Under the pieces are notes generated by a model. The model searched no databases, was not told the DNA's origin, and was given only the letters and a program-made list of their open reading frames with translations. Source: Candidatus Kapaibacterium sp. (GTDB lineage Bacteria; Bacteroidota; Ignavibacteria; Kapaibacteriales; UBA4661). Taken from it: a DNA stretch of 64,000 bases. Below, piece by piece: positions 1 to 36,505 of this stretch. The number at the start of each line of letters is the position of its first letter. The stretch's first letter is position 1. A program made the position numbers and the translations under genes. The stretch covers positions 325-64,324 of the forward strand of contig JANYIG010000168.1 of the NCBI GenBank assembly GCA_025358765.1, given 5' to 3'.

Positions 1-833
1 GTAGGAGTTGTGGCTTCTGGTGTACGGGTTTCGGAGTTCATCACACCAAGACCCATACCCTCATTCATTTCATTATATGAATCAGCCCAGGCTGCATTTA
101 ATCCAGCTTGCATCATGCCTTGTTTTGCTTGGTCGGCAGGAAATTGAATGTATTGAAGTTCTGGTTTACCGATCGCATTTCCAATGATTGTTGCCGCCTC
201 GGAAAACGAAACGTCGCGTGCTCCGAGCAAGGGTAATACGGTGGTTCCCGTAAAATTCAGGGCAAGAAGTTTTTCCGCCACAACTTTTGCTATGTCTTGT
301 GTTGCAATCATCGGGATTGGTATATCACCTTTTGCCGACGAGCCTGTAATACCCATATTTTTGATTAAGCCAATCGTGGCGAACTGGTTTTCCATAAAGT
401 ATGTTGGGCGCAAATGGAGGATGGAAATATCGGCAAGAGCATTCAATTTTTTCTCGAACCGTGCCAATCCAGCAATTGGACCATTGTTCTCGGTCGTATG
501 AGCGCCGTTGCTACTGATATTCACTACATATTTTACGCCGGACGGCTTCAGTGCTGCAATATGCGCGTCGGCAATGACATCCTGTGCACTGCCAATGTCC
601 GTCCATGAATAATCGCCTGGAATTATGGTCATCACTGCCGTTGCGCCTGCGTAAGCCTTCGTGAGAAATGCCACGTCGTGTAAATCTCCTACGACAACTT
701 CTGCGCCTTTTGCAGCAAGGTCTTGAAGTTTATCGGCATGACGAGCAATTGCTCGAACGGGTTTGCCCGCTGCCAAAAGAGATTCTACAACTCGTTTGCC
801 GATGTTGCCAGTAGCGCCTGTGATTACGTACAT
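1..833 (-). CDS. NmrA-like NAD(P)-dependent oxidoreductase (atypical SDR); C-terminus runs off the window
   Basis: Minus-strand translation from ATG at 831-833 gives MYVITGATGNIGKRVVESLLAAGKPVRAIARHADKLQDL..., a Rossmann GxxGxxG NmrA/SDR-type N-terminus. The frame stays open to the window edge. It is divergent from an HxlR regulator, which is a classic pairing. Confidence 0.6.
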   Translation of the reverse strand, partial: MYVITGATGNIGKRVVESLLAAGKPVRAIARHADKLQDLAAKGAEVVVGDLHDVAFLTKAYAGATAVMTIIPGDYSWTDIGSAQDVIADAHIAALKPSGVKYVVNISSNGAHTTENNGPIAGLARFEKKLNALADISILHLRPTYFMENQFATIGLIKNMGITGSSAKGDIPIPMIATQDIAKVVAEKLLALNFTGTTVLPLLGARDVSFSEAATIIGNAIGKPELQYIQFPADQAKQGMMQAGLNAAWADSYNEMNEGMGLGVMNSETRTPEATTP

Positions 834-951
834 TTGTCTGCCCTTGAAAAACGTTGAACAAATAAAATTCTATTGCAAACTTACGAAGGTTTGTGTACTT
901 TTAGCAAGTACGCACTAATTAGTAATGTAGTATCAAAAAAGAAACCATTGG

Positions 952-1371
952 ATGAATAATATGGCTGCAGCATTAAAAATTCCTCGAAAAATAATCTCAA
1001 CCGAAAAAAATCCGGCGAATAGTCTGACCATAACCGATAAACGTATATGCGATTGCCCTGTGGAAACAGCATTAAATCTTATTAGCGGAAAATGGAAAGC
1101 GCGGATTTTGTGGAAGTTGCATACAAACGGCATTGTGCGGTTTGGCGAGATGCGAAAGGGGCTGGATGGTATTACACAAAAAATGCTCACGCAACAACTT
1201 CGTGAGCTAGAGGAAGATGGTCTTGTAAAGCGGAAGGTTTATGCAGAAGTGCCACCACGTGTGGAATATTCGCTCACAGACTTTGGGACAACGTTGCAGC
1301 CGGTGATGCAGGTGATAGCGGAATGGGGAACAGCGCACAATCAGAAAATTGTCAAGCTGCTCAAGCAGTAA
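952..1371 (+). CDS. HxlR-family winged-helix transcriptional regulator
   Basis: CPVETALNLISGKWKARILWKL...RFGEMRK...ITQKMLTQQLRELEEDGLV matches the HxlR/MarR-like wHTH signature. Divergent from the NmrA-like gene. Confidence 0.75.
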   Translation: MNNMAAALKIPRKIISTEKNPANSLTITDKRICDCPVETALNLISGKWKARILWKLHTNGIVRFGEMRKGLDGITQKMLTQQLRELEEDGLVKRKVYAEVPPRVEYSLTDFGTTLQPVMQVIAEWGTAHNQKIVKLLKQ

Positions 1372-1643
1372 ATTTTTCGGTGCATTTTGTGTTCGATTTC
1401 ATGATGCTTACGGTTCTAATGAGTTTTAGTCGGAAAAGCCAGTTTTTAGGAAGAAAAATTGCGGCAATGAACTATGGCTGTCATGACAAAACACTTCTAA
1501 CTAAAACCAACGAGAACCATGCTTATTTGGTTGGAGAGAGCAATCGTCACAATATTTGGGATTATAAATGTGACTTTTTATCGTCTAATAGCTCCTATCA
1601 TTACAGAGCATCTTGAAGTTTCACCATCAATAATCGTTGAAAT

Positions 1644-2213
1644 ATGAAAAAGCAATGGATAATCACCATTTTCATAGTTTATTCCGTTGCCGCAGAAGTG
1701 CTGCTTGGATCATGCTCATCAGCCGTCAAACAAGAGTCGCCCACACCGTCTGTTTTGTTCGAGGTGGAGTATCTGAATTACGCATGGAGTTACCAACAAA
1801 GCGGGTTGTATGTTGATATTGCTGGAAATGTCTATGGCTATCTCCGTAGAAAAGATCAGTATTGGGACGGTAACGATAAAACACTCTTTAGCTATGAAGA
1901 ATTGTTGAACAAATTCAGCGTCGGAAAAACACTTATGAAAACAATTGATGCCGCAACCTTGCAACAAAAAATAGCGCTCGGTCGGCAGGATATTGGGCAG
2001 TTGACAGAACCAAAATATAGGTGTGCTGATGCCGGTACAGTTTCGTTTTGGGTCTATCGAGTGGATACAGAATCAGGGAAATATGCGCGTACCTTACTCA
2101 CTCGAGCGGGCGATGTGATGCAGAAAAATCAAACAGAAAGTGGTACAGCACTTGTAAATTGGCTACGTTCATTGGATTCTGCTGCATATACACAACTTCC
2201 GTGTTTTGATTGA
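1644..2213 (+). CDS. hypothetical lipoprotein
   Basis: Signal peptide with lipobox (LLGSCSS). No recognisable domain. Confidence 0.4.
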   Translation: MKKQWIITIFIVYSVAAEVLLGSCSSAVKQESPTPSVLFEVEYLNYAWSYQQSGLYVDIAGNVYGYLRRKDQYWDGNDKTLFSYEELLNKFSVGKTLMKTIDAATLQQKIALGRQDIGQLTEPKYRCADAGTVSFWVYRVDTESGKYARTLLTRAGDVMQKNQTESGTALVNWLRSLDSAAYTQLPCFD

Positions 2214-2297
2214 ATTTTTTTCAACGCAAAGCGATAATGCCCAGCTAAGATCCTTCGATAGAATTGCAGCACAAACAAGAAAATGGTAATTTTGAAA

Positions 2298-2331
2298 GTG
2301 GTGGGGGAACCTGTTCTCCACCGCTTTTTTT
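2298..2331 (+). terminator. rho-independent terminator-like hairpin plus T-run downstream of the 1644..2213 gene
   Basis: GTGGTGGGGGA...TCTCCACCGC stem followed by TTTTTTT. Confidence 0.4.
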
Positions 2332-2355
2332 ATTCCGTACCAACCCTCAAAATCT

Positions 2356-3333
2356 ATGAGCAAGTTATTTTCTATTATAGTTCCCATCACGTTGACAACG
2401 GTTTTTCTGGTAATTTTGGCGGGCGGCGTTGTGCGGACAACTGGCTCCGGTATGGGGTGCCCAGACTGGCCCAAGTGTTTCGGGCAGTACATCCCACCGA
2501 CGGACGCAAGCCAACTCCCAGTGGATTACAAAACTCGGTTTGCCGTTAAGGGCAAGGAAATAGCAACGTTCGAGGCTTTCAAAACATGGACAGAATATAT
2601 CAATCGTCTGTTGGGCGCATTGTTGGGATTATTTGTCTTTGTGCAGCTTGTGAGCGGCTTCCCACGTTGGAAACGGGATAAATTGACCGTTTGGTTGTGT
2701 GTTGGAATGTTGGTGATGACAGGCTTTGTGGGATGGCTTGGTTCTGTCGTGGTGGCAACAGATTTGCAGCCTGTGAAAATTACGACCCATATGCTTTCGG
2801 CGCTCGTGATTTTGGGGATGTCCGTGATGATTGTGTTGCGTACAAGTCGCTCTACATCGTCTATTCAGGTGACATCGCAATTTTCTCAGGCGCTCAAACC
2901 ATTCCTTTTGTTGGCTCTTGGGATGACGCTTGTACAAGTGATGTTAGGAACGCAAGTGCGCGAGCAGATTGACGAGATGGCAAAAGTTTTGAACGGCGGA
3001 GCGAGGGATTTGTGGATTGACCAGCTTTCGGCGATATTCAAAATCCACCGTACGTTCTCGTTGCTTGTGTTGGCGGTGAATGCAACTATCATGTACGTCG
3101 TGTTCAAGAAGTCAGGCGGTGTGGTGGGAATAAGGGCGTATGCTGTAGTGCTTGGGTTATGTGTAACGAGTGAAATTCTGTTAGGCGTGATATTGTCGTA
3201 CTTTGCCATGCCAACGTTCGCGCAGCCGCTTCATTTATTATTTGCAAGCGGTATGTTTGCGGCGCAATGGGCGATGCTTCTGACAAATAAAACTCTCACA
3301 AACGTTCTTGATAGCAACAACGTTCAAATGTAA
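2356..3333 (+). CDS. ctaA: heme A synthase (CtaA/COX15 family)
   Basis: GMGCPDWPKC motif near the N-terminus and a multi-TM protein of about 325 aa. Confidence 0.75.
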   Translation: MSKLFSIIVPITLTTVFLVILAGGVVRTTGSGMGCPDWPKCFGQYIPPTDASQLPVDYKTRFAVKGKEIATFEAFKTWTEYINRLLGALLGLFVFVQLVSGFPRWKRDKLTVWLCVGMLVMTGFVGWLGSVVVATDLQPVKITTHMLSALVILGMSVMIVLRTSRSTSSIQVTSQFSQALKPFLLLALGMTLVQVMLGTQVREQIDEMAKVLNGGARDLWIDQLSAIFKIHRTFSLLVLAVNATIMYVVFKKSGGVVGIRAYAVVLGLCVTSEILLGVILSYFAMPTFAQPLHLLFASGMFAAQWAMLLTNKTLTNVLDSNNVQM

Positions 3334-3367
3334 GCCAAACAGGAATTAATTCGATACGTTTAATAAA

Positions 3368-3404
3368 AAGGGCAAACGATTTTTTTCGTTTGCCCTTTGT
3401 TTTT
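3368..3404. terminator. bidirectional rho-independent terminator between convergent genes
   Basis: AAGGGCAAACG-ATTTTTTT-CGTTTGCCCTT followed by TGTTTTT. It sits between the ctaA stop (3333) and the stop of the minus-strand gene at 3418. Confidence 0.6.
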
Positions 3405-3417: not shown

Positions 3418-3858
3418 TTACTTCACTGTCACCGATCTTGTTGTTGTAAAAATATTCTCAACATTGTTATCTGTTACTACTCCCGTACTGAGTACAATTA
3501 CCGTACCTTTAGCAAGATTTGCACCCACCGTGTAGGGTATTGTCTGAACCGTTGCTGTAGATGACGGGGCAAATGTGACGGGAACTGAGACTGCCACTGC
3601 TCGGCTTGCTGTGCCGACTGCAGCGTAAAGTTTAACTTCTTTAATAGGGCGGTCGAAGGAGCGTGTTGTCACGCTTGCCGTTATCTGTGTTCCTGCCGCT
3701 ACCGATGCGGACGAAATGGTAAAAGCATCTATCAGCGCGGCAGAACCTTGAACGGTTACTAAATCTGTAAGGACGTTATTCTCTTTGTAGCACGATGTCG
3801 CTACCAACGAGGAAAAGAGAACAAGCGAACAGATGAAAATTTTTGGAATTGGTTTCAT
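3418..3858 (-). CDS. hypothetical lipoprotein
   Basis: Signal peptide plus lipobox (LVATSCYKE). The rest is Ser/Thr/Val-rich. Confidence 0.4.
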   Translation of the reverse strand: MKPIPKIFICSLVLFSSLVATSCYKENNVLTDLVTVQGSAALIDAFTISSASVAAGTQITASVTTRSFDRPIKEVKLYAAVGTASRAVAVSVPVTFAPSSTATVQTIPYTVGANLAKGTVIVLSTGVVTDNNVENIFTTTRSVTVK

Positions 3859-3901: not shown

Positions 3902-5377
3902 TTATTTGCTGTCGCGCCACATCGGAGCAGTGAAAAACTTTACATACTTCTGAACATTTGTACCATTGCGAGCACGTTCGCTGCTCACATAGTTTGCTCG
4001 TTGTACCCATTTACCAGCAGCATCGCTATTCCCGTTCTGAGGATAAACCAACCCCTTAAACACATTCGGGTCTTGATTATAGCGACGCATATCCACCCAC
4101 GCTTCCGGATGAAGGAGCATGGATTTCCATTTCTCCGACATAATATCTTGCAAACGCAAGTCCTTTGCTGCCGGGATACGGTTTGTGTAGCGGGTGATAG
4201 CGGTATCGGCAACCCCCATTTTCGCCATGTTTGCACGAACACCAGCCACAACAGCATTGCGAGCATCATCCGTTGCTCCGACTGACGTTGTGGAGCCGCC
4301 ACTTTGCAAAAAGATCGCTTCTGCTTCAAGGAATTTGTGCTCCGAATATGTTGTCATTAAAATTGGGGCGGTAGTTGTGGCGTAGAAGGTGAATTCTGTC
4401 AAGTTAGCGTTGTTCCCACTCACTGTTCCCGCGCCATTGACGGCACCAACAAGCTGTGAAGCCGTTGCTGGAGTTGTCGCTTTGATAGGTTGAGCTATCA
4501 GGACTAAGCGTGGGTCGTCGTTCATAGATTTCACCGTGTAATCCGACCAAAGCAGCGACAAATTGCCCGTATTATTCGCAAGGGCAACACCCGTATTCCA
4601 CGGATTAAAATTGCGTGTATTGTAGATTAACGCAAAGTCGTCAGCGTTCGATGCAATACCGCCTTTAAGTGCTTGCAATGCAGCTGCACCGGCGGCGACA
4701 GAGCCTTTATTGCTCAAATGCAGAGCGTATCGAGCCTTGAGCGTATTGGCGAGTTTAAGCCAACGCGAAAGATTGCCGGCGTATATCAAATCCTCTGCAC
4801 CCGGCTTAAAGACGGATTCGGCAATAGGTCGTTGCAATTGGACAATAGCTTCGTCGAGCAATCGCTGAATTTCGGTGTAAATGGTTTGTTGTTGATCGTA
4901 ATCAGGTGTAAGGTTTCCACTGCCCTTCAGCCCTTGTGTCCATGGAATTGCTTCCCATTGGTCTGTGGCGAGACCGAGATTCATTGCCTGCAAAACTTTT
5001 CCAATGCCGCTGTACGCCGGCGATTGTCGTTGGTCGGCAAGTTTTACCATGCGGCTTGCCGTTTGGAGTGAACTCAGATAAATGGTTTCCCAGGCTGTGG
5101 AAGTCTCAGAAGGGTCTTGAGAATCAATAAGACCTGCACCGACATCAGCAGTTTGTTGTGCCCACCGTGCATTGGTAAGGCTTAACCAATAGTGTGCGTC
5201 AGCTGTACTTACAATGGTTGTGGGGAGCAAGGCACTTAAAGGGACTACCTCTTCAGACACTTGGGACGGATTTTTGTTGACATCGCCGCCCAAGTAGCTT
5301 TCGCAGCCCGCAAGAAGAGCCAGGGCAACCGTCACCATTGCGGCTGCACCGATAGATGATTTAAAAGTTCGTTTCAT
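3902..5377 (-). CDS. susD: SusD/RagB-family outer membrane nutrient-binding lipoprotein
   Basis: Start trimmed to MKRTFKSSIGAAAMVTVALALLAGCESY (lipobox). About 490 aa, immediately downstream of SusC and 37 bp from the SusC stop. Confidence 0.7.
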   Translation of the reverse strand: MKRTFKSSIGAAAMVTVALALLAGCESYLGGDVNKNPSQVSEEVVPLSALLPTTIVSTADAHYWLSLTNARWAQQTADVGAGLIDSQDPSETSTAWETIYLSSLQTASRMVKLADQRQSPAYSGIGKVLQAMNLGLATDQWEAIPWTQGLKGSGNLTPDYDQQQTIYTEIQRLLDEAIVQLQRPIAESVFKPGAEDLIYAGNLSRWLKLANTLKARYALHLSNKGSVAAGAAALQALKGGIASNADDFALIYNTRNFNPWNTGVALANNTGNLSLLWSDYTVKSMNDDPRLVLIAQPIKATTPATASQLVGAVNGAGTVSGNNANLTEFTFYATTTAPILMTTYSEHKFLEAEAIFLQSGGSTTSVGATDDARNAVVAGVRANMAKMGVADTAITRYTNRIPAAKDLRLQDIMSEKWKSMLLHPEAWVDMRRYNQDPNVFKGLVYPQNGNSDAAGKWVQRANYVSSERARNGTNVQKYVKFFTAPMWRDSK

Positions 5378-5414
5378 AATGTGATGTTCAAAGGATTGGC
5401 AAAAAGTAGGGAAA

Positions 5415-8400
5415 TTAGAAACCAAGGTTAACACTAAAGGAAATGCTTCTGAGCGGCGGCGTGTTCCTACCAACAAGACCAAAAATATTGGTGCCAGCAC
5501 CAAAGGCAAGTGCATCAGGGTCGAAACCCCGGAACGGCGTGCTCAAGAAAAGATTGTTGCCTGTAAGATTTACCCGAACCAACCGTAAAAAAGTTCCTTC
5601 AAGCAAGGATTTTGGTAATGAATATGACAACGTTACATTTCGCAAACGAATCCACGAGCCATCTTGAAGATTCATATATTTGGTGCTGTTGAACGAACCG
5701 CGATAAATGTTGGGGTCAATAAAAGCCGGTACAGTATTTGTGCTGCCGTCAGGTGCTACACCTGTAAAAACAGCTTCTTGATAGCGCAAATCGGTGAAAC
5801 CTGCCACACCATTACGATACGTATTTCGCTCGCCCATATCCACAACATTACCACCCTTGCGCCATTCAATGAAAAACGACAACGATATTCCGTTCCATGT
5901 AAAGGTGTTCGTGAACCCAAGCTGGAAATCCGGGAAAGCATTGCCCACAACAATGAGGGAATCTTTAAGCGTCGGCAATCCCGTGGTTTGGTTGATAATC
6001 ATCCGTCCTTCTGCATTTTTGACGACATCATACCCCCACAGGTCGCCAATAGCACCACCTTTGACAACCTTATTAAAAATTGTGCCTGCCGGATCACTTC
6101 CGAAACTGATTTCATCAATACCCACTGGCATGGACAGTACTTCACCCTTTGTACGAGAAAAGTTTGCAGAGAAATCCCATGAAAAATCTTGTGTTTCGAT
6201 AGGCGTTGCACGAAGCAATAATTCAAATGTTCTACTTTCCAATTCGCCCCCGTTTTGGGTGTATCGTGCATACCCGCTTGCATTGCTCACGGGAATCTGG
6301 AACAGCTGATCTTTACTGGTTTGGATGGCATAGTTTGCATCCAATGTAACGCGGTCATTTGCAAATTTGAATTCACCACCAAGTTCGATGCCGGTTGTGC
6401 GCTCGGGGCGTAAGTTTAATGCTCCGGCTTGTGGATTAACTCGGAAGCCGCCCGTGCTGCCGAATGGGAAGCCAGTAGCTACTTGGTAGTATTCACCAAC
6501 GCTGTACGGCTCAACATCCTTGCCAACTTGCGCCCACGAAGCTCGCAGCCGTGCTGAACTAAGAATGTCGCGTGGAATAGCGTCTTTGAAGAGTTCTGTT
6601 AGGACAAAACTCAAACTTGCGGAAGGATAAAAAAAGGAACGACTGTCAGATGGCAGCGTCGAGGAAATATCATTACGTCCAGACAATGTTAGGTAAAGCG
6701 TTTCGCGCCAACTAACCTGAGCATTAGCAAAAAAACCAACGATACGCCGCACAGACTGTGAACGGCTGGCAAAAAAGTTTGTCGTATTAGCCAAGTCATA
6801 AAATTGGTTCACGATAAAGCGCTCACCGCGTGTACTAAGGTTATCGCTTTTGATGTCGGTGATGGCATTGCCTAACAACACCGACGCACTCAAGTCATCG
6901 CTAAGATTGAACGTCCCCGTAATTAAAAGATTGGAGTTAATTTCACGATAATTAAAACGTTCTTCCGAGATAAACCCGCCAACTTGCGAACCAGCATCCG
7001 TATTTGCAGGCGCGTAGCTCGTGCGTTGGTCGTTATACGTATCAAGTGTGGCTTGGTAGCGGACATTAAGCCAGCTCAATGGATTGTAGTTAAAACCAAC
7101 ATCACCAAACAGGCGATTTACATTATCCGTAAATTTTGTATTTTCTGCGAACCAAAGCGGTTGGTCAACAATACCTGCGGTGTAGTTTTTTGCGCTGCCA
7201 TCGGGGAATTTGTAATCGGTAATGTCAAACGAAGGCGACCAGTAGGAAAGCGAACTAAAGATAGATTTGTCGCCACCTCGGGGGCGGGAACCGCCAGAGT
7301 TTGTATAATTCATAGAGGCATTGACGCTAAAAACTTCGGAAGCGTTGATGGTTCCTTTCAGCGCAACGGTTGTTTTGGCATAATCCGTGTGTGGAACGAT
7401 ACCGGATTGGTCAAGTCGTGATACGGAGGTGTAATATGTTGCTGTTTGACTGCCACCAGAAATGCTCAAAGTGCTATTGTAGCGTTTTCCTGTTTCAAAT
7501 ACATTGCGAAAATTGTCATAGAACGCCTCTCCTGTTAGTGAACGTGCTGGTCCGTTGCTTTGAAAAGCAGAACCACTGTACGGTTCGCGTGTTATGCCGG
7601 CAGAGCCTTGCCCATATAAGGTTTGAACACGCGGATATTTTGCCACATTATCAAAACCAATGGATGAACTAAAGTTAATATCGACTTTATCAATTTTGCC
7701 TTTTTTAGTTGTAATAATAATCGCGCCATTTGCCGCACGCAAACCGTAGAGAGCTGTAGCAGCTGCACCTTTCAAGACGTTAATGCTTTCGATGTCGTCT
7801 GGATTAACGTCGCCTGCACGGTTCGTAAAGCCAAATTGTTCGGAAGAATTTATAGCATTAGAGCCAACACTGGGAAGTGGGTTGCCTGCTTGTGTGGCGT
7901 TGCTAATAGGAATACCATCAATCACAAAAAGCGGTTGGTTGTCGCGCCCAGGTGATAACGACGTTACGCCACGAATGATGATGTTTGAGCCGGAACCCGG
8001 AGCACCACCGGAGCCAGTAATTGTCACGCCTGCAACACGACCTTATAAGGCAGCAACGATATTGGTCTCGCCGCTTCGCATAATCTCAGAACTATTGACT
8101 TCTTGCACTGCATAACCAAGCGATTTTTTCTGCCGCTCCACACCAAGAGCTGTAACCACAACATCTTCCAACGATTTGATGTCGAGGTCAAGCGTGGTGT
8201 TAATCGTGGATTTATCACCAATCGTTATTTCGCGGGTAGTAAACCCTATGTAACTAAAAACAAGTATTGTGCCGTCTGCAGGAATATTTATCCGATACTC
8301 TCCTTTTGTATCGGCAATAGCTCCCGCTTTTGTGCCTTTTACGATAATACGAACGCCTTTAAGCGGCGCTCCCGATTCGGCATCTGTCACCTTGCCAGTA

Positions 8401-8492
8401 ATGGTGCGGGTTTGGGCGTGTACTCCCACCGTCCAAAAGACGCTTAGAGCCACCACGATTAACCCACAAAGGAATGGTATTGTTTTTTTCAT
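5415..8492 (-). CDS. susC: SusC/RagA-family TonB-dependent receptor, interrupted by an in-frame TAA at 8043-8045 (possible pseudogene, sequencing error or strain-specific nonsense allele)
   Basis: The N-terminal ORF (8043..8492) has signal peptide, CarboxypepD_reg-like domain and start of plug ([19 protein letters not shown]...EDVVVTALG...). The downstream ORF (5415..8027) continues in the same frame ([16 protein letters not shown]...) and ends in the beta-barrel C-terminus ...SVNLGF. The single TAA sits where the family motif ALQGRVAGV has Gln. Confidence 0.75.
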
Positions 8493-8587: not shown

Positions 8588-8680
8588 ACCGCAGAGGCGC
8601 AGAGGTAGAGAGCCGATAAAAAGAGCTTTTGAAACGTATTCCACAATCTTGATTCTCTGCGCCCTCTGCGCCTCTGCGGT
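8588..8680. repeat. long hairpin: 18-bp perfect inverted repeat (ACCGCAGAGGCGCAGAGG) with a 57-nt loop, built from tandem CGCAGAGG/CTCTGCGCC units
   Basis: Read directly from the sequence. Located in the divergent region between susC and gpx. Confidence 0.6.
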
Positions 8681-9000: not shown

Positions 9001-9639
9001 ATGAAACCACTTCTTACTCGTTTTGCAGCCTTATCTACTGTGAGTGCTGTCGTTGTTTGCCTTGTGAGCGCCATAGCACTCGGCAATAATAAACCCAATA
9101 CAAACCGTGTGCACCGCACCAATTTTTCATCCGCCATGAGTGTTGTTTTCAATACACCTTCACCTTCGATTTATGATTTTACCTTAAAAAATATTGATGG
9201 CAAAGACGTAAAACTTGCGGATTACAAAGGTAGTGTATTATTGGTGGTGAATGTTGCCAGCAAATGTGGATACACACCGCAATACGAGGCTTTGCAAAAA
9301 ATTTATACGCAATACAAAGACAAAGGTTTTGTCGTGCTGGGCTTTCCGGCGAACAATTTTGGAGGGCAGGAGCCGGGAACGGAAGCAGAAATTAAGACGT
9401 TCTGTTCTACGAAGTATAGCGTAAACTTTCCGATATTCTCTAAAATTTCGGTTAAAGGCAGTGACATGCACCCGTTGTACAAGTATCTGACAACCGCAGA
9501 GGGTTTTTCGGGCGATATTAAATGGAATTTCGGCAAATTTCTTATTGGTAAAGACGGCAAAATTCTTGCTCGCTTTGAACCGCGCGACACGCCGGACGGT
9601 GAAACCGTAACAAAAGCACTCGAAGCGGCGTTGAAGTAA
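9001..9639 (+). CDS. gpx: glutathione peroxidase (Cys-type) with N-terminal signal/anchor
   Basis: LVVNVASKCGYTPQYEALQ...VLGFPANNFGGQEPG...WNFGKFLIGKDG are canonical GPx motifs. Confidence 0.85.
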   Translation: MKPLLTRFAALSTVSAVVVCLVSAIALGNNKPNTNRVHRTNFSSAMSVVFNTPSPSIYDFTLKNIDGKDVKLADYKGSVLLVVNVASKCGYTPQYEALQKIYTQYKDKGFVVLGFPANNFGGQEPGTEAEIKTFCSTKYSVNFPIFSKISVKGSDMHPLYKYLTTAEGFSGDIKWNFGKFLIGKDGKILARFEPRDTPDGETVTKALEAALK

Positions 9640-9662
9640 GGTTTCGATATATACGATTAAAG

Positions 9663-9705
9663 AGCGATAATGCGGTATAGCAATACTGGCTTATCGCTTT
9701 TTTTT
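9663..9705 (+). terminator. rho-independent terminator downstream of gpx
   Basis: AGCGATAA...TTATCGCT stem followed by TTTTTTT. Confidence 0.6.
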
Positions 9706-9847
9706 GCGCTTTTTTGAGGGCTATGTTGCTTCATTGCTTGTTTGTAGGGTTTGTCGGCGTATCTTTGCAGGATAAATTTTTTTCAAAATAGTCGAACGTT
9801 TGATTAACCTCAGTCTGAACTCCTGGCGAATCCTCAGCGAAACAATT

Positions 9848-10465
9848 ATGAACGAATTACTTGGCGAACAATTACCCCATCAATGGCATACAGATCGGCT
9901 TGTCGTCCGCGATGCAGCTATAGTAGATGTTCCACGACTTACAGCCATTTTTAATGCCTGTGAGTACGTGGGTGAGTGGGATGAAACGTTTTACGCTATT
10001 GAGCAAGACGTGATGCAGCGTTTCGTACAGCAGAGTATGAGCGATGATGAAGATTTTCGTGAGTTTCGGCTTCAATGCGTTTTGGTGCGAGATTCTTTAT
10101 CGCAGGATTCTGCATTACAGGATTCTTCGGAAATTATCGGCTATTTTCATTGTTATCATAACCTGCCGAAGCCTCACTATTTCTGGATTTCGATGTTTGT
10201 CTTCCATCCTGACTTTCACGACAAAGGATTTGGGAGCGAGGTCGTAAAAGGGTTGTGTGAACAATTGACAATGCTTGCATACAAAGCGCTGCGGACACGC
10301 GTGTATCTGAAAAACTGGACAGGTCTCCGTTTTTGGATTGATGCCGGGTTTACGAGCATCACGCAATATAAAGGCGATGCGACGTTTGCGGCTGATGCTT
10401 ACGCTAGTTTGCGATTGGAACGAGCGCTTAAACCGAACCAATCCTTCACACCGTCGAATAACTAA
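9848..10465 (+). CDS. GNAT-like acetyltransferase (putative)
   Basis: FVFHPDFHDKGFGSEVV resembles GNAT motif A (Q/R-x-x-G-x-G/A). Start chosen at MNELLGEQL; the ORF track gives 9800. Confidence 0.4.
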   Translation: MNELLGEQLPHQWHTDRLVVRDAAIVDVPRLTAIFNACEYVGEWDETFYAIEQDVMQRFVQQSMSDDEDFREFRLQCVLVRDSLSQDSALQDSSEIIGYFHCYHNLPKPHYFWISMFVFHPDFHDKGFGSEVVKGLCEQLTMLAYKALRTRVYLKNWTGLRFWIDAGFTSITQYKGDATFAADAYASLRLERALKPNQSFTPSNN

Positions 10466-10510: not shown

Positions 10511-11197
10511 ATGAAATCGTTTTTTGTGGCTGCTTTTATCACGATGTGTTCTGTTTCGCTTTATGCTCAATCTGTGGAAGAACTTCTTCGTTCATCTGCC
10601 GCCGGCTTTACACCCGCATTGTATCTGCCTGCGGAGGTGCTGCAATATTTGAAGGATCCCACCACAAAACAGATACGTTCGGTTGAACGCGACGAAGAAA
10701 ATGCGTCTCTGTGTTTGAGTTTTACATCTTCACGGGCTATGGTTGACGTTTGTGCAAAAGCCTTTACCGACTCGCAAGGCGCACCAATACTCTTCATCGC
10801 AACAACATCCTTCGCGCAATCCGCTTCAACAACGGGAAAAGGCAAACGCCAAATTTCAAGCAGTGCTTCAGGGGTGGCGAGCTACGAGTATAGCACACGG
10901 TTTTGCATATTAAGAAAAGCCCGTACTTGGGAAGCAGTAACGACGGAAGTAATTCCACCAGAGGCAATTAGCGCATTAAAAATAGTGTTCAAATTAGACA
11001 AACAACGCGGCGAATGGTCGAACACGAATACAAACGAAGGCAAAATTTCTTTCGGTTTTTCTGGCTCGACGGTTACACTCAATGCCGTTACTGGTGGGAT
11101 AAAAACAATGCGTGCCCGTCCGCCGCTTACAACGCTGCTTTGGAACGGGGATAGGTTTGTGGTGAATGAGCCGAGCGCCTCTCCTCAAATCCGATAA
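10511..11197 (+). CDS. hypothetical secreted protein
   Basis: Signal peptide MKSFFVAAFITMCSVSLYAQ. It is 12 bp upstream of the next gene, so probably the first gene of an operon. Confidence 0.4.
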   Translation: MKSFFVAAFITMCSVSLYAQSVEELLRSSAAGFTPALYLPAEVLQYLKDPTTKQIRSVERDEENASLCLSFTSSRAMVDVCAKAFTDSQGAPILFIATTSFAQSASTTGKGKRQISSSASGVASYEYSTRFCILRKARTWEAVTTEVIPPEAISALKIVFKLDKQRGEWSNTNTNEGKISFGFSGSTVTLNAVTGGIKTMRARPPLTTLLWNGDRFVVNEPSASPQIR

Positions 11198-11209
11198 ATT
11201 CTCATCTCT

Positions 11210-12562
11210 ATGAAATTCACCCCGTCTGACCAAGCCCTTGAGCTTGTTGAACAGCACCTTTCTCGTTTACCTCGTTTTGATGGCTCTGCACATTCAAGAA
11301 AAATGCTGCATTGCACAGTTCAAAGTGTAGCTGCGGCAACAGGGCTAACGCTTATTGAGAGCGAGGGGGCGCTCACAACGCTGATGGCACGGTACAAATG
11401 CCGTTTGATGATGAATAGGGAAACAGGCGAAGTGGAATTTGTGTTTACCGCTCCTCTTCTTCGGCGCGGCAGCCTGACGGTAAAGGAAACGTTTCGCACT
11501 TTTGGGAAAAGAGTTCTCAAGGGGTTTGAAATGATCTATCGTGCGTCGCTTGGTGCGATTTTGCTTATGTATAGCCTTGTATATGCAGTTGTTGCCGTTG
11601 TACTTGTCGTACGCTTTGGTTTTGAAGGTCTCTTAGATGGCTTTTTTGATGTTCTGTATCAAGGCGTGTTCGGAGGCAGGTCACGCAAAAAAACAAGCAA
11701 TAGCTTGCGGGTAAAAAATTTTTCGTCATTGGAAATTCGGAGCGAAGAAGAAACTCAAGGCTTAAAGCCGGAAGGGTTTATGGGTTCTGTTTTTAATTTC
11801 GTTTTTGGTCCCGTAGAACCTATACCCGACCCTCTAAAAGCAGAGAAAAACGCAGCGTTCTTCATCCATCACAATCAAGGCAAACTCACAGCGGGGCATA
11901 TTGTGGCGCTTACAGGGTGGTGTTACGACGAAGCGGAATCACATCTGGCAGAATACATCGCTCGTTTTGGTGGCGAGGCACAACTGAGTGATACCGGCGC
12001 GGTCTATGGCGAATTTGCCGATAGCATTGGTTCCGTCTCGTTGCTGGATTCTACCAAAGGCACGCCAAATCTTGTTTTTTACGACGAAGAGCAAGAGCAA
12101 AAATATCTGTTGACGGGCAATAGCGATGGGCGCAATGCAGCTATTATCGGGTTGAACGTTTTTAATATCGGCATGGCATGTTTACTTTCGCAATTCTTTC
12201 AAGATTCTACCATTTGGCAGTCACTGTTGGTCGTGTTTCCGTTCACAGTTTCGGTTTTGTATTTTCTCATTCCCCTTGCTCGATTGCCGATTGTGCAGAT
12301 CCGCAATGAACGTCAGAAGCGGCGTGTTCTTCGCAAACATATTTTGCGAAATATTTTGAATGGAGTTCAAAATGGCAATACGGATCTCAGGCTATGGGAA
12401 ATGCTTCGCGGCATTGCCGCGGATTCGAGTTTCGGTGGAGTTGCAGTTGAAGCCGCATTGGTACTTGTTGCAGAGCTTCAGGGTGAGGTTGTGCTTAACG
12501 AGGACGGCAACACAGTTTATCGCTTTACCCGTTTAAGTGGTGACCTTGTTGTGAAAGAATGA
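11210..12562 (+). CDS. hypothetical polytopic membrane protein
   Basis: 450 aa with about 3 TM helices (LGAILLMYSLVYAVVAVVLVV, AAIIGLNVFNIGMACLL, LLVVFPFTVSVLYFLIPL) and large cytoplasmic regions. Confidence 0.45.
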   Translation: MKFTPSDQALELVEQHLSRLPRFDGSAHSRKMLHCTVQSVAAATGLTLIESEGALTTLMARYKCRLMMNRETGEVEFVFTAPLLRRGSLTVKETFRTFGKRVLKGFEMIYRASLGAILLMYSLVYAVVAVVLVVRFGFEGLLDGFFDVLYQGVFGGRSRKKTSNSLRVKNFSSLEIRSEEETQGLKPEGFMGSVFNFVFGPVEPIPDPLKAEKNAAFFIHHNQGKLTAGHIVALTGWCYDEAESHLAEYIARFGGEAQLSDTGAVYGEFADSIGSVSLLDSTKGTPNLVFYDEEQEQKYLLTGNSDGRNAAIIGLNVFNIGMACLLSQFFQDSTIWQSLLVVFPFTVSVLYFLIPLARLPIVQIRNERQKRRVLRKHILRNILNGVQNGNTDLRLWEMLRGIAADSSFGGVAVEAALVLVAELQGEVVLNEDGNTVYRFTRLSGDLVVKE

Positions 12563-12910
12563 TTTCACCAAAAGTGTCAAGTTCAAGTGTCAAGTTTACT
12601 TTCCGCTTTTAGTTGCTATGTCAACTATCCTGTCAGGTTTTCTTTCCACTTTTCGCCCAGAACTCCCATATAATGACGCTTTTTAACTCTGGCACGTCCT
12701 TTGTATAATTCCACTACAGAATCAATCATCACAACGATTTTTCTTCCTTTTCTTCTCCATCTATCCTGTTATTTTTCGCTGATGAACCTTTTCGACTATT
12801 TGTAATCACGCTGGCTTCAATGTGGGTATGGTATTGCGAATCAAGAAACAAAGCGCTCCAGACCTAAATTAAGCCGCATTTTTCAAGTCGTTTTTGAAAG
12901 GTTCACCACG

Positions 12911-14188
12911 ATGACTACCACCTTGTTTGAGGGGCGTTACCAAGCCTCTTCCCGCGTGAAGGCACGTCACTACGTACTTTTTGTTGCCCTGTTTATTATC
13001 CTTGCTTCGGTTTTGTATGTTGGCGTATTGCCGCGAGCGGCGGAACGGTTTGCTGTCGCCCAATTGAAGCCCGATGAAGGCGCATTGGTTATGTTCAATG
13101 GCGTGTATGCAAGCCCAACAGGTGAGGGGGCAAATGCTTTTGGTCAGGAGGTGCAGCGCCGTTCCATCAATGGCGAATACATCTTCGATTTTACGAATGT
13201 CGAGCGCAAAACTGAAATTCATGGCTACACCAAAGTTGCCCGTGAATGGTTGATAAAATCTCCCAAAATTGGCGAAGAAGCAATTTACATCCGTCATGAA
13301 GCATTTATGCTGCTGGCGCTTGCTATCGCCTTTGCTGGCACGGTCTTGTTTACGTTTGTGTTGTCCCCAAAACTCGGCTTAATGGCTGCACTCACCGAGC
13401 GCGAGGCGGCACACACACGTTCGCGCCTTATCCTCGAAACAGGGCTGAGAGGCGATGTTGTGGATATGCTTACGATGCCGGAACGTGAATTGACGCGGCG
13501 CACAGAGATTGACGGTGAAGTCACGGAGCGTTTACGGGAACAGATGTTTGTTGTTTGGGAACGCACTTTGCCGTCTGCGGCAAGCGAACGCGCCGAAGGC
13601 TCGACACCAGAGTTTACCACTATTCCCCAAGGATATGAAGCCCAATGCCGTGCGTACCTGTTAGAGCGCATTGCAGAGCGATTTCCGTCCAATATTACGC
13701 AAGCCTTTTCGCACCTCAAAAATGTTCAACACTGGCGCAACAACAGGCTTTTGGTGCTTTCAGCGATTCGCTTGTTTATGAGTCAATTTTTTGCCGTGCG
13801 CTACTCCAATAGCGTGAACGGGCTTGCATATACCGGTGCGGCATTGCTGATTATCGCCATCGGGCTTCGCGGCTTAAAGTTCATCCCACCCGCTCATCCC
13901 AGCTTGATTCTGGCGGCTATCACGGTCGAATTTTCGTTGTTGATTTTGCTCGGCATTACGTTGTATTTCCAGCAAGAAGAAGCAGGAAACGCCGATTCAA
14001 CCTTATCGCTGAAGAAAATTGAAGGAGATATGCACAGGCTTGCCGTTGTCGTGGATAGCGGAAACGCTGAAGTCGTAGAACGCGCCGTCCGCAAGGCAGT
14101 TGAAGAATATATTGCAGGTCCGAATGTAGTCGAAAAGCACTTTGTCAATGTCATCACTGAGCGCATTACAATGGCACTTCGGGCGTAA
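12911..14188 (+). CDS. hypothetical membrane protein; the C-terminal two-helix module resembles GldL/PorL (T9SS/gliding motor stator)
   Basis: 425 aa with 4 predicted TM helices. The C-terminal pair is LAYTGAALLIIAIGLRGLKFIPP and LILAAITVEFSLLILLG, with a Glu in the second helix. From memory, the pattern resembles the GldL N-terminus (AYGMGAAVVIVGALFKITHF / LSIGLLTEAFIFAL). Confidence 0.4.
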   Translation: MTTTLFEGRYQASSRVKARHYVLFVALFIILASVLYVGVLPRAAERFAVAQLKPDEGALVMFNGVYASPTGEGANAFGQEVQRRSINGEYIFDFTNVERKTEIHGYTKVAREWLIKSPKIGEEAIYIRHEAFMLLALAIAFAGTVLFTFVLSPKLGLMAALTEREAAHTRSRLILETGLRGDVVDMLTMPERELTRRTEIDGEVTERLREQMFVVWERTLPSAASERAEGSTPEFTTIPQGYEAQCRAYLLERIAERFPSNITQAFSHLKNVQHWRNNRLLVLSAIRLFMSQFFAVRYSNSVNGLAYTGAALLIIAIGLRGLKFIPPAHPSLILAAITVEFSLLILLGITLYFQQEEAGNADSTLSLKKIEGDMHRLAVVVDSGNAEVVERAVRKAVEEYIAGPNVVEKHFVNVITERITMALRA

Positions 14189-14223
14189 ACAAACCACTCA
14201 CAACCTCAAAACTACCCAACACT

Positions 14224-16407
14224 ATGTCAAGAAATTCAGCCGGAAAGGTCTATTTCGTACTGTATTTGGCGGTGATTTTGGAACTCCTTATCATCATTGT
14301 CGAACGAGACGAAGCAGAAGACCATCTTCGCAAACGCGAACGCGAGGCACGCGAAATTGTCCAAGATATTTTGGGGCAAATGCAAATTGGCAGGGGCGAT
14401 GAAAACCTTAATTCGCGCATCACCGATGAAATCTCACTTTTGTCCGATGAAGCCATAAAAATTAGCGGAATCCCGTACAAGAAGCACCGCACCTACAACA
14501 TCGAAGTGGGCGTGAATGACGGCAATGCGTCGGTAACGCTTGGCTCTGACCGCCGCGACACGCTCGAACACCAGCGCGTTCTGAAACAGCTCGCCAACGT
14601 GCAAGATTTGAACTACGAAATCCTCTACACGCCGAGCACCGATGACGATTTGCCGCCAAACAGTGATAGTAGCGAATCTGCCGATAAACGTTGGAAACCT
14701 ATTGCTACAACCGCACTGACATTGGATACGAATGCAACTCAAACATGGCAAACGCCAGTGTATCGCGGTGATGCGGGAATAAGCGACGTGAGCAAATATG
14801 CGCCACCGCAAGCCGTCGGCGAGCCGTTTATCTTCAACAGTTCATTAACCGATGATTTTGTGCGCCAAAACAGTGGCAAATCTACAAAACGGATTTTCAC
14901 GGCGAATTTCCAGCCCACACAGCCCGGCTGGTATAAGTTGCGTTTCACGTCGAAAACGAACCGCATTATGGGCGTTGGCGGCGATGCAAAGAGTCTGGAT
15001 GAGATTTCGGACGATGCTAAAATCAATATTGGCGGGATGCAACTCACCGTCAAAAAGCTCAAAAAGCTTCAGCAGATGCTTGGGCGCGAGCTTGAAAGCT
15101 TTGGTGTGCCTACGATGGAAGAATTTGTTGCCGCTCAGACTGAGGACGATGTGCAAAAGTTTTTTACAAAAGTGGATGCCGCAAAAGCTACGATTGAGCG
15201 CGAAAAAAGTGGCAACCTGGGCTTGACACGAGATTTGGCGCGGAAAGTGGACGTATATGCCGATATTACAAAACTGCTTACGCCAAACAAATCTAAGTAT
15301 TTCGCACAAAATCACGGCGCAATGGAAATCAACGTTCGTGTAACGAAGCCACCGATAGCCATTGTGCAAGCGCAGATTGCACTTCCGAGCGAAGTGAACA
15401 TGTTCGACAAGGCAAAACCCGCGTTCAAGTTCACTGCCGGACCTTTTTACGGTAATAATTTCCCGCAAGGCGAGATTACAAGCGCCGATGGGAAAGTTTA
15501 CAAACTCACCATTGAAAAAACAGGCGCTCTTGCGGACAATAATTCGTTGAAGCCGCTTGAAAAGGGCGATGCAGTGCTGTTTATGGCGAAAACATTAGAG
15601 CCGCTCAAACCCGGTTCGTACACAATTCGCATGACGCACACTTCGCAAGGAGACTCGAAGACGGAACAATCGCCGCTCCGTGTGTTCCCGTCCGCGCTGA
15701 CGAAAAACAATTATGGCATGGTGGAAGGGCGCATGAAATCATTGTTCTACGGTTCAACGCTTTCATTAAATCTGCAACCAAACTGCGAAGACCGCATTCC
15801 AGCGAATCAATTCCGTATTTATGCTGCATTGAATAATCAGCCGCAAACGATATTTACCAACGGTTTGGTGGCAAAATTGCCGATTGAAGCAAAAGCACGA
15901 ACGGCATCGTTGCGCGTGACGTGGGTTTCGCCTTACACCGATGAGGAAATCGAAATACTGCCAAAGCTCGAAAACCCCATCAAACAACGCGAACCAGACA
16001 TGGATTTATCGCGGGTGAGCATAACCAAAATTTCGGGCGATTCGGAAGAAATGACGATTCAAATCAGCGGAATTACAGTCAATCCGGCAACGGTGGATGT
16101 GGGCGGCAAGCAAGGCGGCGAACAGGATATTGCAGACGTAGCACTCTCGCAAATAAGCACCGATGCACCCGGTATGGATGTTGCTGATTCACGCTTGATT
16201 CCTGCGGGTGGTGGAAATTATTCGGCAGTGTTTGTATTACATGGCGTTCCAGCAAAAAAATCGGTGGAAATTGTCGGAAAGCTAAACTTTACTCTTACAT
16301 CCGTTATGCGGAACCCAACGAACGGAACCCGCTCGAATTCGGCTACGTGGGCGCAAGAAGTGCCATTTACATACACAACGCCCGCCAAAAAAGGTGCGAA
16401 GAAGTAA
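14224..16407 (+). CDS. hypothetical bitopic protein with GldM/PorM-like architecture (N-terminal TM anchor plus large periplasmic domain)
   Basis: 727 aa. Single N-terminal TM (VYFVLYLAVILELLIIIV), a charged coiled segment, then about 650 aa of periplasmic sequence. It lies 35 bp downstream of the GldL-like gene. Confidence 0.4.
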   Translation: MSRNSAGKVYFVLYLAVILELLIIIVERDEAEDHLRKREREAREIVQDILGQMQIGRGDENLNSRITDEISLLSDEAIKISGIPYKKHRTYNIEVGVNDGNASVTLGSDRRDTLEHQRVLKQLANVQDLNYEILYTPSTDDDLPPNSDSSESADKRWKPIATTALTLDTNATQTWQTPVYRGDAGISDVSKYAPPQAVGEPFIFNSSLTDDFVRQNSGKSTKRIFTANFQPTQPGWYKLRFTSKTNRIMGVGGDAKSLDEISDDAKINIGGMQLTVKKLKKLQQMLGRELESFGVPTMEEFVAAQTEDDVQKFFTKVDAAKATIEREKSGNLGLTRDLARKVDVYADITKLLTPNKSKYFAQNHGAMEINVRVTKPPIAIVQAQIALPSEVNMFDKAKPAFKFTAGPFYGNNFPQGEITSADGKVYKLTIEKTGALADNNSLKPLEKGDAVLFMAKTLEPLKPGSYTIRMTHTSQGDSKTEQSPLRVFPSALTKNNYGMVEGRMKSLFYGSTLSLNLQPNCEDRIPANQFRIYAALNNQPQTIFTNGLVAKLPIEAKARTASLRVTWVSPYTDEEIEILPKLENPIKQREPDMDLSRVSITKISGDSEEMTIQISGITVNPATVDVGGKQGGEQDIADVALSQISTDAPGMDVADSRLIPAGGGNYSAVFVLHGVPAKKSVEIVGKLNFTLTSVMRNPTNGTRSNSATWAQEVPFTYTTPAKKGAKK

Positions 16408-16459
16408 GAAGTTTGGCGATGCAATTATTTTTAGAGTTTATTCCGATTCCTTTTGTCTA

Positions 16460-16550
16460 TCATTCCAGCGAAGGCTGGAATCCAGATGTAGTGCGAACTG
16501 TGGCTGGGGCTGGAATGACTGTCCCTGTGCAATTATCGGAATAAGCTCTC
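16460..16550 (+). repeat. REP/MITE-like palindromic intergenic element, copy D
   Basis: CATTCCAGCGAAGGCTGGAATCC...GGCTGGGGCTGGAATGAC...TATCGGAATAAGCTCTC matches copies at 35414, 36324 and 40966. Confidence 0.55.
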
Positions 16551-16570
16551 TTATCTTCCGAATGAATTAT

Positions 16571-16616
16571 TTTCTACCTGCTGGGCGCTTTCTTCAGTGT
16601 CCGGCAGGTTTTTTTA
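16571..16616 (+). terminator. terminator-like hairpin plus T-run
   Basis: CCTGCTGG...CCGGCAGG followed by TTTTTTTA, after the 14224..16407 gene. Confidence 0.4.
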
Positions 16617-16659
16617 TGTAGAAGCCGCGCAGATAGAATAATGACTACAACTCGCAATG

Positions 16660-17607
16660 TCATTTTGTTCTGAGCGATTGTAAGAGTTTTGATTGGATGG
16701 CATATTCACCTTCATCGCCCTTGTCAACGCCAAGAAGTCTCATACGCCCGCCGCTGCGCGTTATTGTTGGTTGATGTGTTACAAAACCAGAAAAACCATT
16801 CATAATTTTATCTTTTCTGATAATCTGTGCATTGCTTGTAGCAGAGAGCGTAAGACGGATGAAAACTCGCTGCGTTTGTAATGTTTCGGGCACTTTGAAT
16901 AGAACCGTTTCGCGGCTTTTGCTGTTTGTGCTTTTAATGATTGGTTGCTGAATCGGTTCATCGTGTTGGGAAATTGTCAGGGAATCTAAAAGCGCAAGCC
17001 GTTGTCCCATTGCCTCACCGATAAGCTCCACGCTCCAGTTAACCTCTCCGAATGCCTGATAATAATGGGCGTTCGATATCCTCGGCGTTATCATATTCTC
17101 AGTTTTCAAAAACCATCTGGTTCCATTGCCGATCCAACTCATGTCCCGGAAAAATTTGATTTCATCGCCTTTTGAAAGTAAAAATGACTCTGTTCGGCTG
17201 ATGGTGCTAAGATTATTTGCTATTGTTACATCCCCGTTACGCCAATGTTGGAGTTGGAGTGGCTTGCCGTTGTTACGACATTCTGTAAAGAGGAACGTGG
17301 CTAATGAAGAATCAAATTGTGCTGAAAACTCATACCCGGGGAATGGCTTCGTTGCTGTTAATTGTGGATATCCTTCCCCCAAAAAACTATGCTTCTTCAG
17401 TGAATCGAGCGACGTTGACTTCTGATTTTGCACTTGTTCTGGATATGTTGTTGCTGGCGCAGCGTAAACATGAGGTCGTAAAACTATATCTTGCTTGCTG
17501 CTGTCACACTGTGCCCATAGATCGCCTACACCAAAAAAACTACCTGCTATCACCAACCAAATGAGGCTAAAATACATAGCCCGCCAAAGGGAAAAGGGTT
17601 TCATCAC
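16660..17607 (-). CDS. hypothetical secreted protein
   Basis: N-terminal signal peptide (LIWLVIAGSFFGVGDLWAQ). No recognised domain. Confidence 0.4.
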   Translation of the reverse strand: MMKPFSLWRAMYFSLIWLVIAGSFFGVGDLWAQCDSSKQDIVLRPHVYAAPATTYPEQVQNQKSTSLDSLKKHSFLGEGYPQLTATKPFPGYEFSAQFDSSLATFLFTECRNNGKPLQLQHWRNGDVTIANNLSTISRTESFLLSKGDEIKFFRDMSWIGNGTRWFLKTENMITPRISNAHYYQAFGEVNWSVELIGEAMGQRLALLDSLTISQHDEPIQQPIIKSTNSKSRETVLFKVPETLQTQRVFIRLTLSATSNAQIIRKDKIMNGFSGFVTHQPTITRSGGRMRLLGVDKGDEGEYAIQSKLLQSLRTK

Positions 17608-27446: not shown

Positions 27447-27899
27447 ATGTTATCAAATGCCTGTACATATGGAATGCAAGCGTCCATTTACATTGCTTTG
27501 CACAAACAGAGCGAGCAATTTATCCCTATTTCTCTTATCGCTCAAGAGCTTGATATTCCGTTTCAGTTTTTGAAAAAAATTCTACAAAAACTTGCCGAGC
27601 GAAATATTCTTACTTCACAACGGAGTGCAAAGGGTGGGGTTAAGCTTGCGCGTTCGGCAGAAACTATTTCGATGTTTGACATTATTGAGGCTATTGATGG
27701 CGTGGAGCTTTTAACAACGCAGTGCATCATGAAAATGCCCGGCTGTGGCAATCAAACACCCTGTCCGCTTCATTCGCTTTGGGGTGTAGAGCGAGCAAGG
27801 CTTCGGAAACTCTTTGAAAATACGAATTTGAAAGATTTGGCACGGAAAACGAACGATTTAGATTTGCGGCTCGGGATGTTTGTGCCGCATCAGGATTGA
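27447..27899 (+). CDS. Rrf2-family transcriptional regulator (NsrR/IscR-like, 3-Cys cluster ligands)
   Basis: N-terminal wHTH (YGMQASIYIALH...) and a C-x7-C-x5-C pattern (QCIMKMPGCGNQTPC), typical of [Fe-S] Rrf2 regulators. Confidence 0.7.
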   Translation: MLSNACTYGMQASIYIALHKQSEQFIPISLIAQELDIPFQFLKKILQKLAERNILTSQRSAKGGVKLARSAETISMFDIIEAIDGVELLTTQCIMKMPGCGNQTPCPLHSLWGVERARLRKLFENTNLKDLARKTNDLDLRLGMFVPHQD

Positions 27900-28045
27900 C
27901 AATCGTGGCTGATAGATTTTTCAGAGTAAAACATCTGTTTCTTTAACCAAGAAAAAAATCTCGTGTAGGGATGTAGTTTTTAATAAGAGATAAAATACTA
28001 TCTATTCTCTAAATTTATTATTTTTTAATGAAAGTGAAGGCTAAT

Positions 28046-28801: not shown

Positions 28802-28850
28802 CAACAACACAAACAGATAATTCAGGTTTCACTTTTACAGGAAATTCCTC

Positions 28851-29321: not shown

Positions 29322-29399
29322 CGAACAACGCTAATTACCGCTTGCTTTCAGCGTTGGCAAGCACGTGTACAACATTACAATTACGCGGGAGACAACCGT

Positions 29400-31373: not shown

Positions 31374-31467
31374 TACGTTCTCTGTCCGTCGCACGGCGTT
31401 TGTCACAATTGCTGTGGCAAACGCCTGATAGACGAGAATGGCTTACAATCATTAAACTTGAATATAT

Positions 31468-32508: not shown

Positions 32509-32529
32509 AAATGTAGAAAATGAAAAAAT

Positions 32530-36152: not shown

Positions 36153-36323
36153 TTTTTTCTGGGAGTGCCTGAAATTTAATAAGTCTTTCATCCATTACTG
36201 AACGTTTTGCGGTATAATGAGCGCAGAGGCAGGGAGCCACGTACCCGTGGGGAGAGTTTGAAGATAACATGGAGCTTTCTCTTTTTATACCTTAGAGTGT
36301 AATCCGATTATTGTCCAGGAACC

Positions 36324-36403: not shown

Positions 36404-36505
36404 CTTGTAGATTCTCTGCGCTCTCTTGACGGTTTCCGTCAGCCTCGGCGCTCAAATTCATTCGGTACTAAAAAGCCTTACATAAATCATTGCGATTTCA
36501 ATTTT

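Follow-up and report, generated by a model that had tools for sequence, protein, structure and literature searches.

Examples of SusC/RagA-SusD pairs are Bt1763/Bt1762 and BT2264/BT2263 of Bacteroides thetaiotaomicron and RagAB of Porphyromonas gingivalis, in which a TonB-dependent transporter matching TIGR04056 over its full length, together with the SusC signature TIGR04057, is followed directly by a SusD-like gene. In Bt1763 a Ton box (DEVVVTG) lies after the N-terminal extension and is required for growth on levan (PMC7782687). Here we analysed 64,000 nucleotides (nt) of Candidatus Kapaibacterium sp. (contig JANYIG010000168.1 of assembly GCA_025358765.1, positions 325 to 64,324), referred to below as the window, and found a susC gene that shares these hallmarks, has a SusD-like gene directly downstream and agrees in its domain order with Bt1763 (PMC7782687). 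Its best solved relative is chain B of 5FQ6, which is BT2264. Unlike the working SusC/SusD systems, however, the window gene is cut at codon 150 by an in-frame TAA and cannot make a transporter. We consider it likely that this stop arose by a genuine and recent point mutation from CAA to TAA (G to A at window position 8045, plus strand), which turned susC into a young pseudogene. The gene is in this respect like ordinary nonsense pseudogenes, which stand one substitution away from the orthologous sense codon and are otherwise intact, and we see no essential difference from them.

The coordinates of the gene, of its two pieces and of the operon to which it belongs are collected in the table below. 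With the stop read as Gln, susC comprises 1,025 sense-codon positions on the minus strand, an orientation that the initial annotation of this DNA did not mention. That annotation had described two SusC open reading frames (ORFs) in the same frame, separated only by the TAA at 8043-8045, and the translation bears this out: across the stop the coding strand reads AAT ATC GTT GCT GCC TTA TAA GGT CGT GTT GCA GGC GTG (N I V A A L * G R V A G V), the pieces of 149 and 875 codons share one frame, and codon 150 is the sole interruption of that frame, with no second stop and no frameshift. The ORF of 870 residues that had been listed for the second piece starts at a GTG at 8027, five codons past the stop. 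The domains are arranged as expected for the SusC/RagA family, namely a signal peptide, a carboxypeptidase-regulatory-like N-terminal extension (CarbopepD_reg_2, PF13715, at residues 31-113 of the 5' piece according to Pfam), a Ton-box-like segment and the plug. Positions 31-107 of the 107 in the Pfam Plug profile (PF07715) align with residues 2-107 of the 3' piece, that is, the plug match runs on across the stop. In addition, TIGR04056 covers the rejoined protein (stop as Gln) from profile position 1 to 981 of 981 in a single stretch over the junction, at 643.2 bits against a cutoff of 368.25, and TIGR04057 is matched at residues 233-263 with 60.5 bits against a cutoff of 46.2. Because the TIGR04056 alignment runs end to end in one stretch, the two ORFs are one gene cut in two. 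A functional member of the SusC/RagA family has an uninterrupted frame for plug and barrel behind its signal peptide, and in the window this frame is broken by the TAA at codon 150; susC is thus a member of the family by descent, but a pseudogene.

The nature of the lost codon follows from comparison with relatives. In an alignment of the 119 best SusC homologues (46-68% identity), the column of the stop holds Gln in 93 sequences, among them 11 of the 11 closest, and Arg in the other 26, and the flanking Gly as well as the Ala-Gly two to three residues onward are nearly invariant. Ala occupies the equivalent position in two SusC proteins of known structure, 5FQ6 (BT2264) and 8YPT. The earlier claim of a conserved Gln at this site therefore stands for the closest homologues and for most of the alignment but needs narrowing in view of the Arg and Ala residues, as Gln is typical of this SusC subfamily and not universal in the wider family. 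At the DNA level, the comparison was made on the four closest intact orthologues, which are 66-67% identical to the window protein over 99-100% of its length and provide five loci (L010-L014). All five have a Gln codon at this position, CAA in L010, L011, L012 and L014 and CAG in L013, and since the orthologues use CAA or CAG at codon 150, a single C-to-T transition suffices to produce the stop, which supports the CAA-to-TAA change that had been proposed. The mutated base is window position 8045, an A on the plus strand and a T on the coding strand, for which we infer G and C, respectively, as the ancestral state; within the window, moreover, Gln is encoded more often by CAA than by CAG (527 versus 206).

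An intact allele of the same species was not found, a result that carries little weight for products truncated at contig ends. With the full-length query, the only hit of the protein collection in the range from 67% to 100% identity was the piece of 870 residues, and a query of 245 residues spanning the stop returned nothing above 68%, the latter being a weak negative, as the 870-residue piece was not returned either and the search thus seems to be length-biased, so that products at contig ends may escape it. The JGI metagenomes contained no match to the exact DNA sequence flanking the stop, with the codon itself left free, and a protein-based scan recovered relatives at 35-36% identity only. 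Species-representative genomes, a set to which the source genome does not belong, contained only paralogues at no more than 30% identity when scanned with the SusC protein. The window protein is in this regard unlike the known SusC/SusD systems, given that its nearest database relatives are only 66-67% identical to it, and those in the species-representative scan at most 30%.

The nonsense mutation also yields a perfect 10-bp palindrome, CCTTATAAGG, at 8041-8050, while the inferred ancestral sequence, CCTTACAAGG, is still found in the orthologue L011. The palindrome is probably a coincidence. Template switching at a quasi-palindrome was considered as a mechanism for the mutation, but five-base arms without a loop make it unlikely and a plain C-to-T transition is simpler.

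To judge the age of the stop, we compared the conservation of the rest of the gene with that of intact genes. Conservation among the other 119 sequences reaches 90% or more at 225 columns; of these, the window SusC deviates at 13 and the four intact orthologues at 13, 12, 12 and 11. The lineage-specific changes amount to 73 in the window SusC, 8 of them at conserved columns, as against 89, of which 18 at conserved columns, in the intact orthologue P0002. In addition, SusC is more strongly conserved than the other two products of the operon: its identity to the orthologous loci is 66%, whereas SusD reaches 60-62% and the small lipoprotein 52-59%. SusC also ranks first among the orthologues themselves, and there is no acceleration relative to SusD or the lipoprotein. 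Since the rest of susC shows no decay beyond that of intact orthologues, the mutation is recent relative to measurable divergence. A recent nonsense mutation had been the first of three options offered in the initial annotation, and both the absence of extra decay and the presence of the same TAA in a second assembly, described below, favour it.

The other two options, an assembly error and a read-through site, have to be weighed against this reading, together with a change of the genetic code. A miscalled consensus base, with the organism truly carrying CAA and an intact susC, would account for a single-base lesion in a metagenome-assembled contig whose gene is otherwise flawless. The exact truncated product of 149 residues is present in both NCBI and Logan, and the NCBI record with these proteins is one contig of 65,935 nt only. 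The Logan contig L001 (2,212 nt, run SRR23617167, reported in three samples) encodes exactly this 149-residue product, ended by the same TAA; at an identity of 99.91%, its only differences from the window are at 7812 (GGC to GGT) and 7803 (AAT to AAC), both synonymous. Because L001 was assembled separately, by a different pipeline, and has the TAA yet differs at two other bases, it does not merely duplicate one consensus, and the stop is not an artefact of one assembly. Moreover, it is rare for a substitution error to make its way into the consensus of a short-read assembly. An assembly error is thus unlikely, and we see only a slim chance that the organism in truth carries CAA. Exact look-ups of the SusD and glutathione peroxidase proteins found Logan contigs from four further runs besides that of L001, none of which crosses the stop, because those on this side end at or near an inverted repeat at 8588-8680; an exact look-up of the 870-residue piece returned no record. 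That TAA might be read as Gln throughout the organism has a probability close to nil, as the position of the stop at a Gln site is all that speaks for it, whereas TAA closes 24 of the 43 long ORFs in the window at the points where the homologous families end, those of susC and susD included, and only one in-frame TAA occurs among about 50 genes. We rejected code reassignment on the basis of this stop-codon usage, and we know of no bacterial reassignment of UAA. Functional read-through, in which an ochre-suppressor tRNA or a leaky context would allow UAA to be decoded at a useful rate, so that full-length SusC would still be made at a reduced level, possibly as a means of holding its expression low, is very improbable in our view. 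It would agree with the 875 downstream codons, which are undamaged and show the same degree of conservation as those of the orthologues, with the synonymous nature of both L001 differences 3' of the stop and with the occurrence of the TAA allele in more than one run, but an intact downstream frame is expected after a recent mutation anyway. The stop is conserved in none of the five orthologous genes, all of which carry a sense Gln codon, and the 119 homologues without exception have Gln or Arg; TAA is the commonest genuine terminator of the window, which contains no tRNA gene and no Rfam family match at gathering thresholds, and in which no other in-frame TAA was found. In Escherichia coli, UAA terminates efficiently when a G follows, and Poole, Brown and Tate reportedly placed this signal in 1995 among the most efficient ones of that species. 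The locus shares with known recoding systems (UGA to selenocysteine, UAG to pyrrolysine, UGA to Trp or Gly, and UAG to Gln in some phages) only an in-frame stop where relatives have an amino acid, and is unlike them in that its codon is UAA, a normal terminator in the window, unconserved in orthologues and without an Rfam match.

A further possibility refines the preferred reading of a genuine, recent mutation rather than replacing it, namely that the knockout was favoured because SusC served as a receptor for phage or bacteriocins or was a costly transporter, and that the allele then spread, remaining revertible by one T-to-C change. The finding of the TAA allele on two slightly different haplotypes or assemblies, reported in three runs, and the failure to find an intact allele of the species in the collections would fit such a history. 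SusC/SusD homologues are recurrent targets of within-host adaptation in Bacteroides fragilis (Zhao et al., bioRxiv 10.1101/208009), and premature stops are over-represented in the same B. fragilis dataset, for which reversion by one base has been proposed (Torrillo and Lieberman, PMC11379459). The window lesion is like these adaptive stops of gut Bacteroides in gene class and in type, and unlike them in that they come from isolate time series with parallel mutations, whereas here a single allele is seen in an uncultured organism. A neutral or mildly deleterious mutation in a clonal population would look alike, and the runs are possibly not independent; we give selection a small but real chance.

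Several observations also count against a genuine and recent nonsense mutation as such. The TAA is known from assembled consensus sequence, and other Logan contigs of these runs are 100% identical to the window. The Logan runs and the metagenome-assembled genome may come from one study, so that independence holds for the assembly and is not proven for the samples. As no intact allele of the species was seen in any collection, the ancestral codon is deduced solely from orthologues that are 66-67% identical. The frame is fully open over the 875 codons after the stop, and L001 departs from the window by synonymous changes only, as might be expected too of a gene still under selection; the latter argument is very weak (n=2, at sites 9 nt apart). 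Finally, efficient termination at UAA-G would have to carry over from E. coli to this lineage.

Given a genuine and recent mutation, its consequences can be outlined, in which efficient termination, loss of transport and polarity on susD are inferred steps. The CAA-to-TAA transition at the codon for Gln-150 would create an ochre stop, and translation would end after 149 residues, giving a product that runs from the signal peptide through the N-terminal extension and the Ton box to about 30 residues into the plug and has none of the barrel. Without the barrel and the rest of the plug no SusC transporter would be produced, and a restart at the GTG at 8027 would give a protein that has no signal peptide and would be unable to reach the outer membrane. 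The intact susD and the small lipoprotein gene would be left without their transporter partner. Long untranslated stretches of upstream mRNA cause polarity in general, and about 2.6 kb of untranslated mRNA 5' of susD may lower expression of the downstream genes. Most likely, the susC/susD/small-lipoprotein import module is non-functional in this lineage.

Features of the susC locus in the 64,000-nt window (positions count from the first letter of the window).
Feature	Position	Strand	Remarks
Premature in-frame TAA	8043..8045	-	Codon 150 of susC; about 30 residues inside the plug domain
Whole susC (SusC/RagA-family TonB-dependent transporter), pseudogene	5415..8492	-	TIGR04056, TIGR04057; own terminator TAA at 5415-5417
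5' piece of susC, 149 codons	8046..8492	-	Signal peptide, N-terminal extension, Ton box, first ~30 plug residues
Putative Ton box DVVVTALG, residues 110-117	8142..8165	-	5' of the stop; assigned by similarity to DEVVVTG of Bt1763
3' remainder of susC, 875 codons	5418..8042	-	Rest of plug and whole beta-barrel; frame open and undamaged
susD-like gene, 491 residues, intact, lipoprotein signal ...LLAGC	3902..5377	-	37 nt after the susC stop; full-length Pfam SusD-like_2, 154.6 bits
Predicted lipoprotein gene, 146 residues, lipobox LVATSC	3418..3858	-	Third gene of the operon
Hairpin, 13-bp stem with T-runs	3367..3398		Between the convergent lipoprotein and COX15 genes; consensus scan

The SusD-like gene downstream of susC is undamaged and matches its family over the full length, in agreement with the initial annotation, and the exact SusD protein is present on five contigs. 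The third gene belongs to the operon in its relatives as well. The order susC-susD-lipoprotein is shared by L010, L011, L012 and L014, while the contig of L013 ends within the gene after susC, and these four loci have lipoprotein ORFs of 149 residues at the identities to the window copy given above (9135-9584 in L010, 5268-5717 in L011 and 6223-6672 in L014). A small predicted lipoprotein of 136-149 residues is thus always found 3' of the SusD-like_2 gene in this SusC/SusD subfamily, the ORF at 9606-10016 of the more distant locus L017, described below, being counted by position and unaligned. The window protein of 146 residues has no sequence match in Pfam, NCBIfam or the PDB, and its single-sequence AlphaFold model is all-beta and possibly immunoglobulin-like, with a low confidence (pLDDT, the predicted local distance difference test, of 56) that is too poor for a fold search. 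A possible role is that of an accessory binding protein that serves the transporter at the cell surface. The hairpin beyond this gene is, judged by its stem and T-runs, a likely terminator of the operon.

No glycoside hydrolase gene or other carbohydrate-active enzyme gene lies beside the operon. The locus is in this way unlike the SusC/SusD loci that are linked to carbohydrate enzymes, as its partners are only the SusD-like_2 protein and the lipoprotein, and the label of a polysaccharide utilization locus (PUL), which had been applied earlier, is generous for a bare susC-susD-lipoprotein operon. The neighbourhood of the cassette also varies. A sensor kinase with Y_Y_Y and propeller domains and a LuxR-type response regulator stand directly 5' of susC in L010 (145-4121) and L014 (1-1067), and such regulators are not adjacent to susC in the window, L011 or L012; the window susC is flanked instead by a divergent glutathione-peroxidase gene. 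Since regulators adjoin the gene in L010 and L014 but glutathione peroxidase does so in the window, the neighbourhood of the susC cassette is not conserved.

A perfect 18-bp inverted repeat, ACCGCAGAGGCGCAGAGG / CCTCTGCGCCTCTGCGGT, lies at 8588-8605 and 8663-8680 between susC and the glutathione-peroxidase gene, with a spacer of 57 nt. Within the window it is found only here, where 0.02 matches are expected by chance. The contig L001 begins at 8586, right at one arm of the repeat, and the contigs L015 and L016 begin at 8731, 51 nt past the other arm. The repeat could represent a repeated element or form a hairpin with a regulatory or terminator function.

Interrupted susC genes are also seen in other genomes. 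Pseudarcicella hirudinis GCA_042432365.1 (L017) contains two tandem SusC homologues, at 375-3319 and 5001-8114, each of them in three ORFs (279, 459 and 289 residues in the first and 279, 208 and 572 residues in the second). An ORF of 437-441 residues follows 3' of each, of which only the second is recognised as SusD-like, and the second SusC is followed by its SusD-like_2 gene and then by an ORF of 136 residues, which is the same order as in the window operon. These split genes may be real pseudogenes or assembly frameshift errors. The window susC has a single lesion and hence is younger than the multiply broken Pseudarcicella copies. In addition, a segment search returned, as candidates, many N-terminal SusC-like ORFs of 270-430 residues on long contigs, which are of megabase size and come from isolate genomes; a 'MULTISPECIES' Hymenobacter protein is among these candidates.

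Elsewhere in the window, no other gene appears to be disrupted, as had been stated before. Same-frame pairs of neighbouring ORFs revealed no other convincing split gene in a check that was not exhaustive, the remaining pairs being separate genes or antisense to genes, and scans of the other ORFs with Pfam and NCBIfam recovered whole genes, including a kdp operon, a clade II nosZ cluster, a resistance-nodulation-division (RND) efflux system, a chemotaxis receptor, DinG, TonB and others. The nitrous-oxide reductase cluster, of the Sec type (clade II), occupies 27447-35403 with nosZ, nosL, nosD, nosF and nosY, and is preceded by an Rrf2 regulator and an ScdA/hemerythrin gene. The region 50555-58694 encodes a methyl-accepting chemotaxis protein, TonB and a protein of 1,174 residues with PorZ-like propeller repeats and a SiaA-like phosphatase domain. 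The nos and chemotaxis gene content is unusual beside SusC/SusD, and, as far as gene content can tell, hints at a motile, nitrous-oxide-reducing member of Bacteroidota or of a sister phylum. Five consecutive sizeable ORFs in 10511-17607 have no Pfam match at E<=1e-3 (10511-11197, 11210-12562, 12911-14188 and 14224-16407 on the plus strand and 16660-17607 on the minus strand), and the same is true of 36311-38323 (670 residues) and 38456-39298. Because each of the window proteins that were looked up falls into a cluster of only one or two sequences at 90% identity, close relatives of the organism are scarce in public data.

For the annotation of this genome, the ORFs of 149 and 870 residues are best joined into a single entry marked as a susC pseudogene, and a metabolic reconstruction of this uncultured organism should leave the susC-susD-lipoprotein module out of its functional uptake systems. 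As an ordinary pseudogene with a single hit, susC adds another case to the rapid turnover seen among SusC/SusD genes. If the stop proves to be selected or to revert, it would illustrate in nature the "adaptive stop codon and reversion" that has been proposed for Bacteroides.

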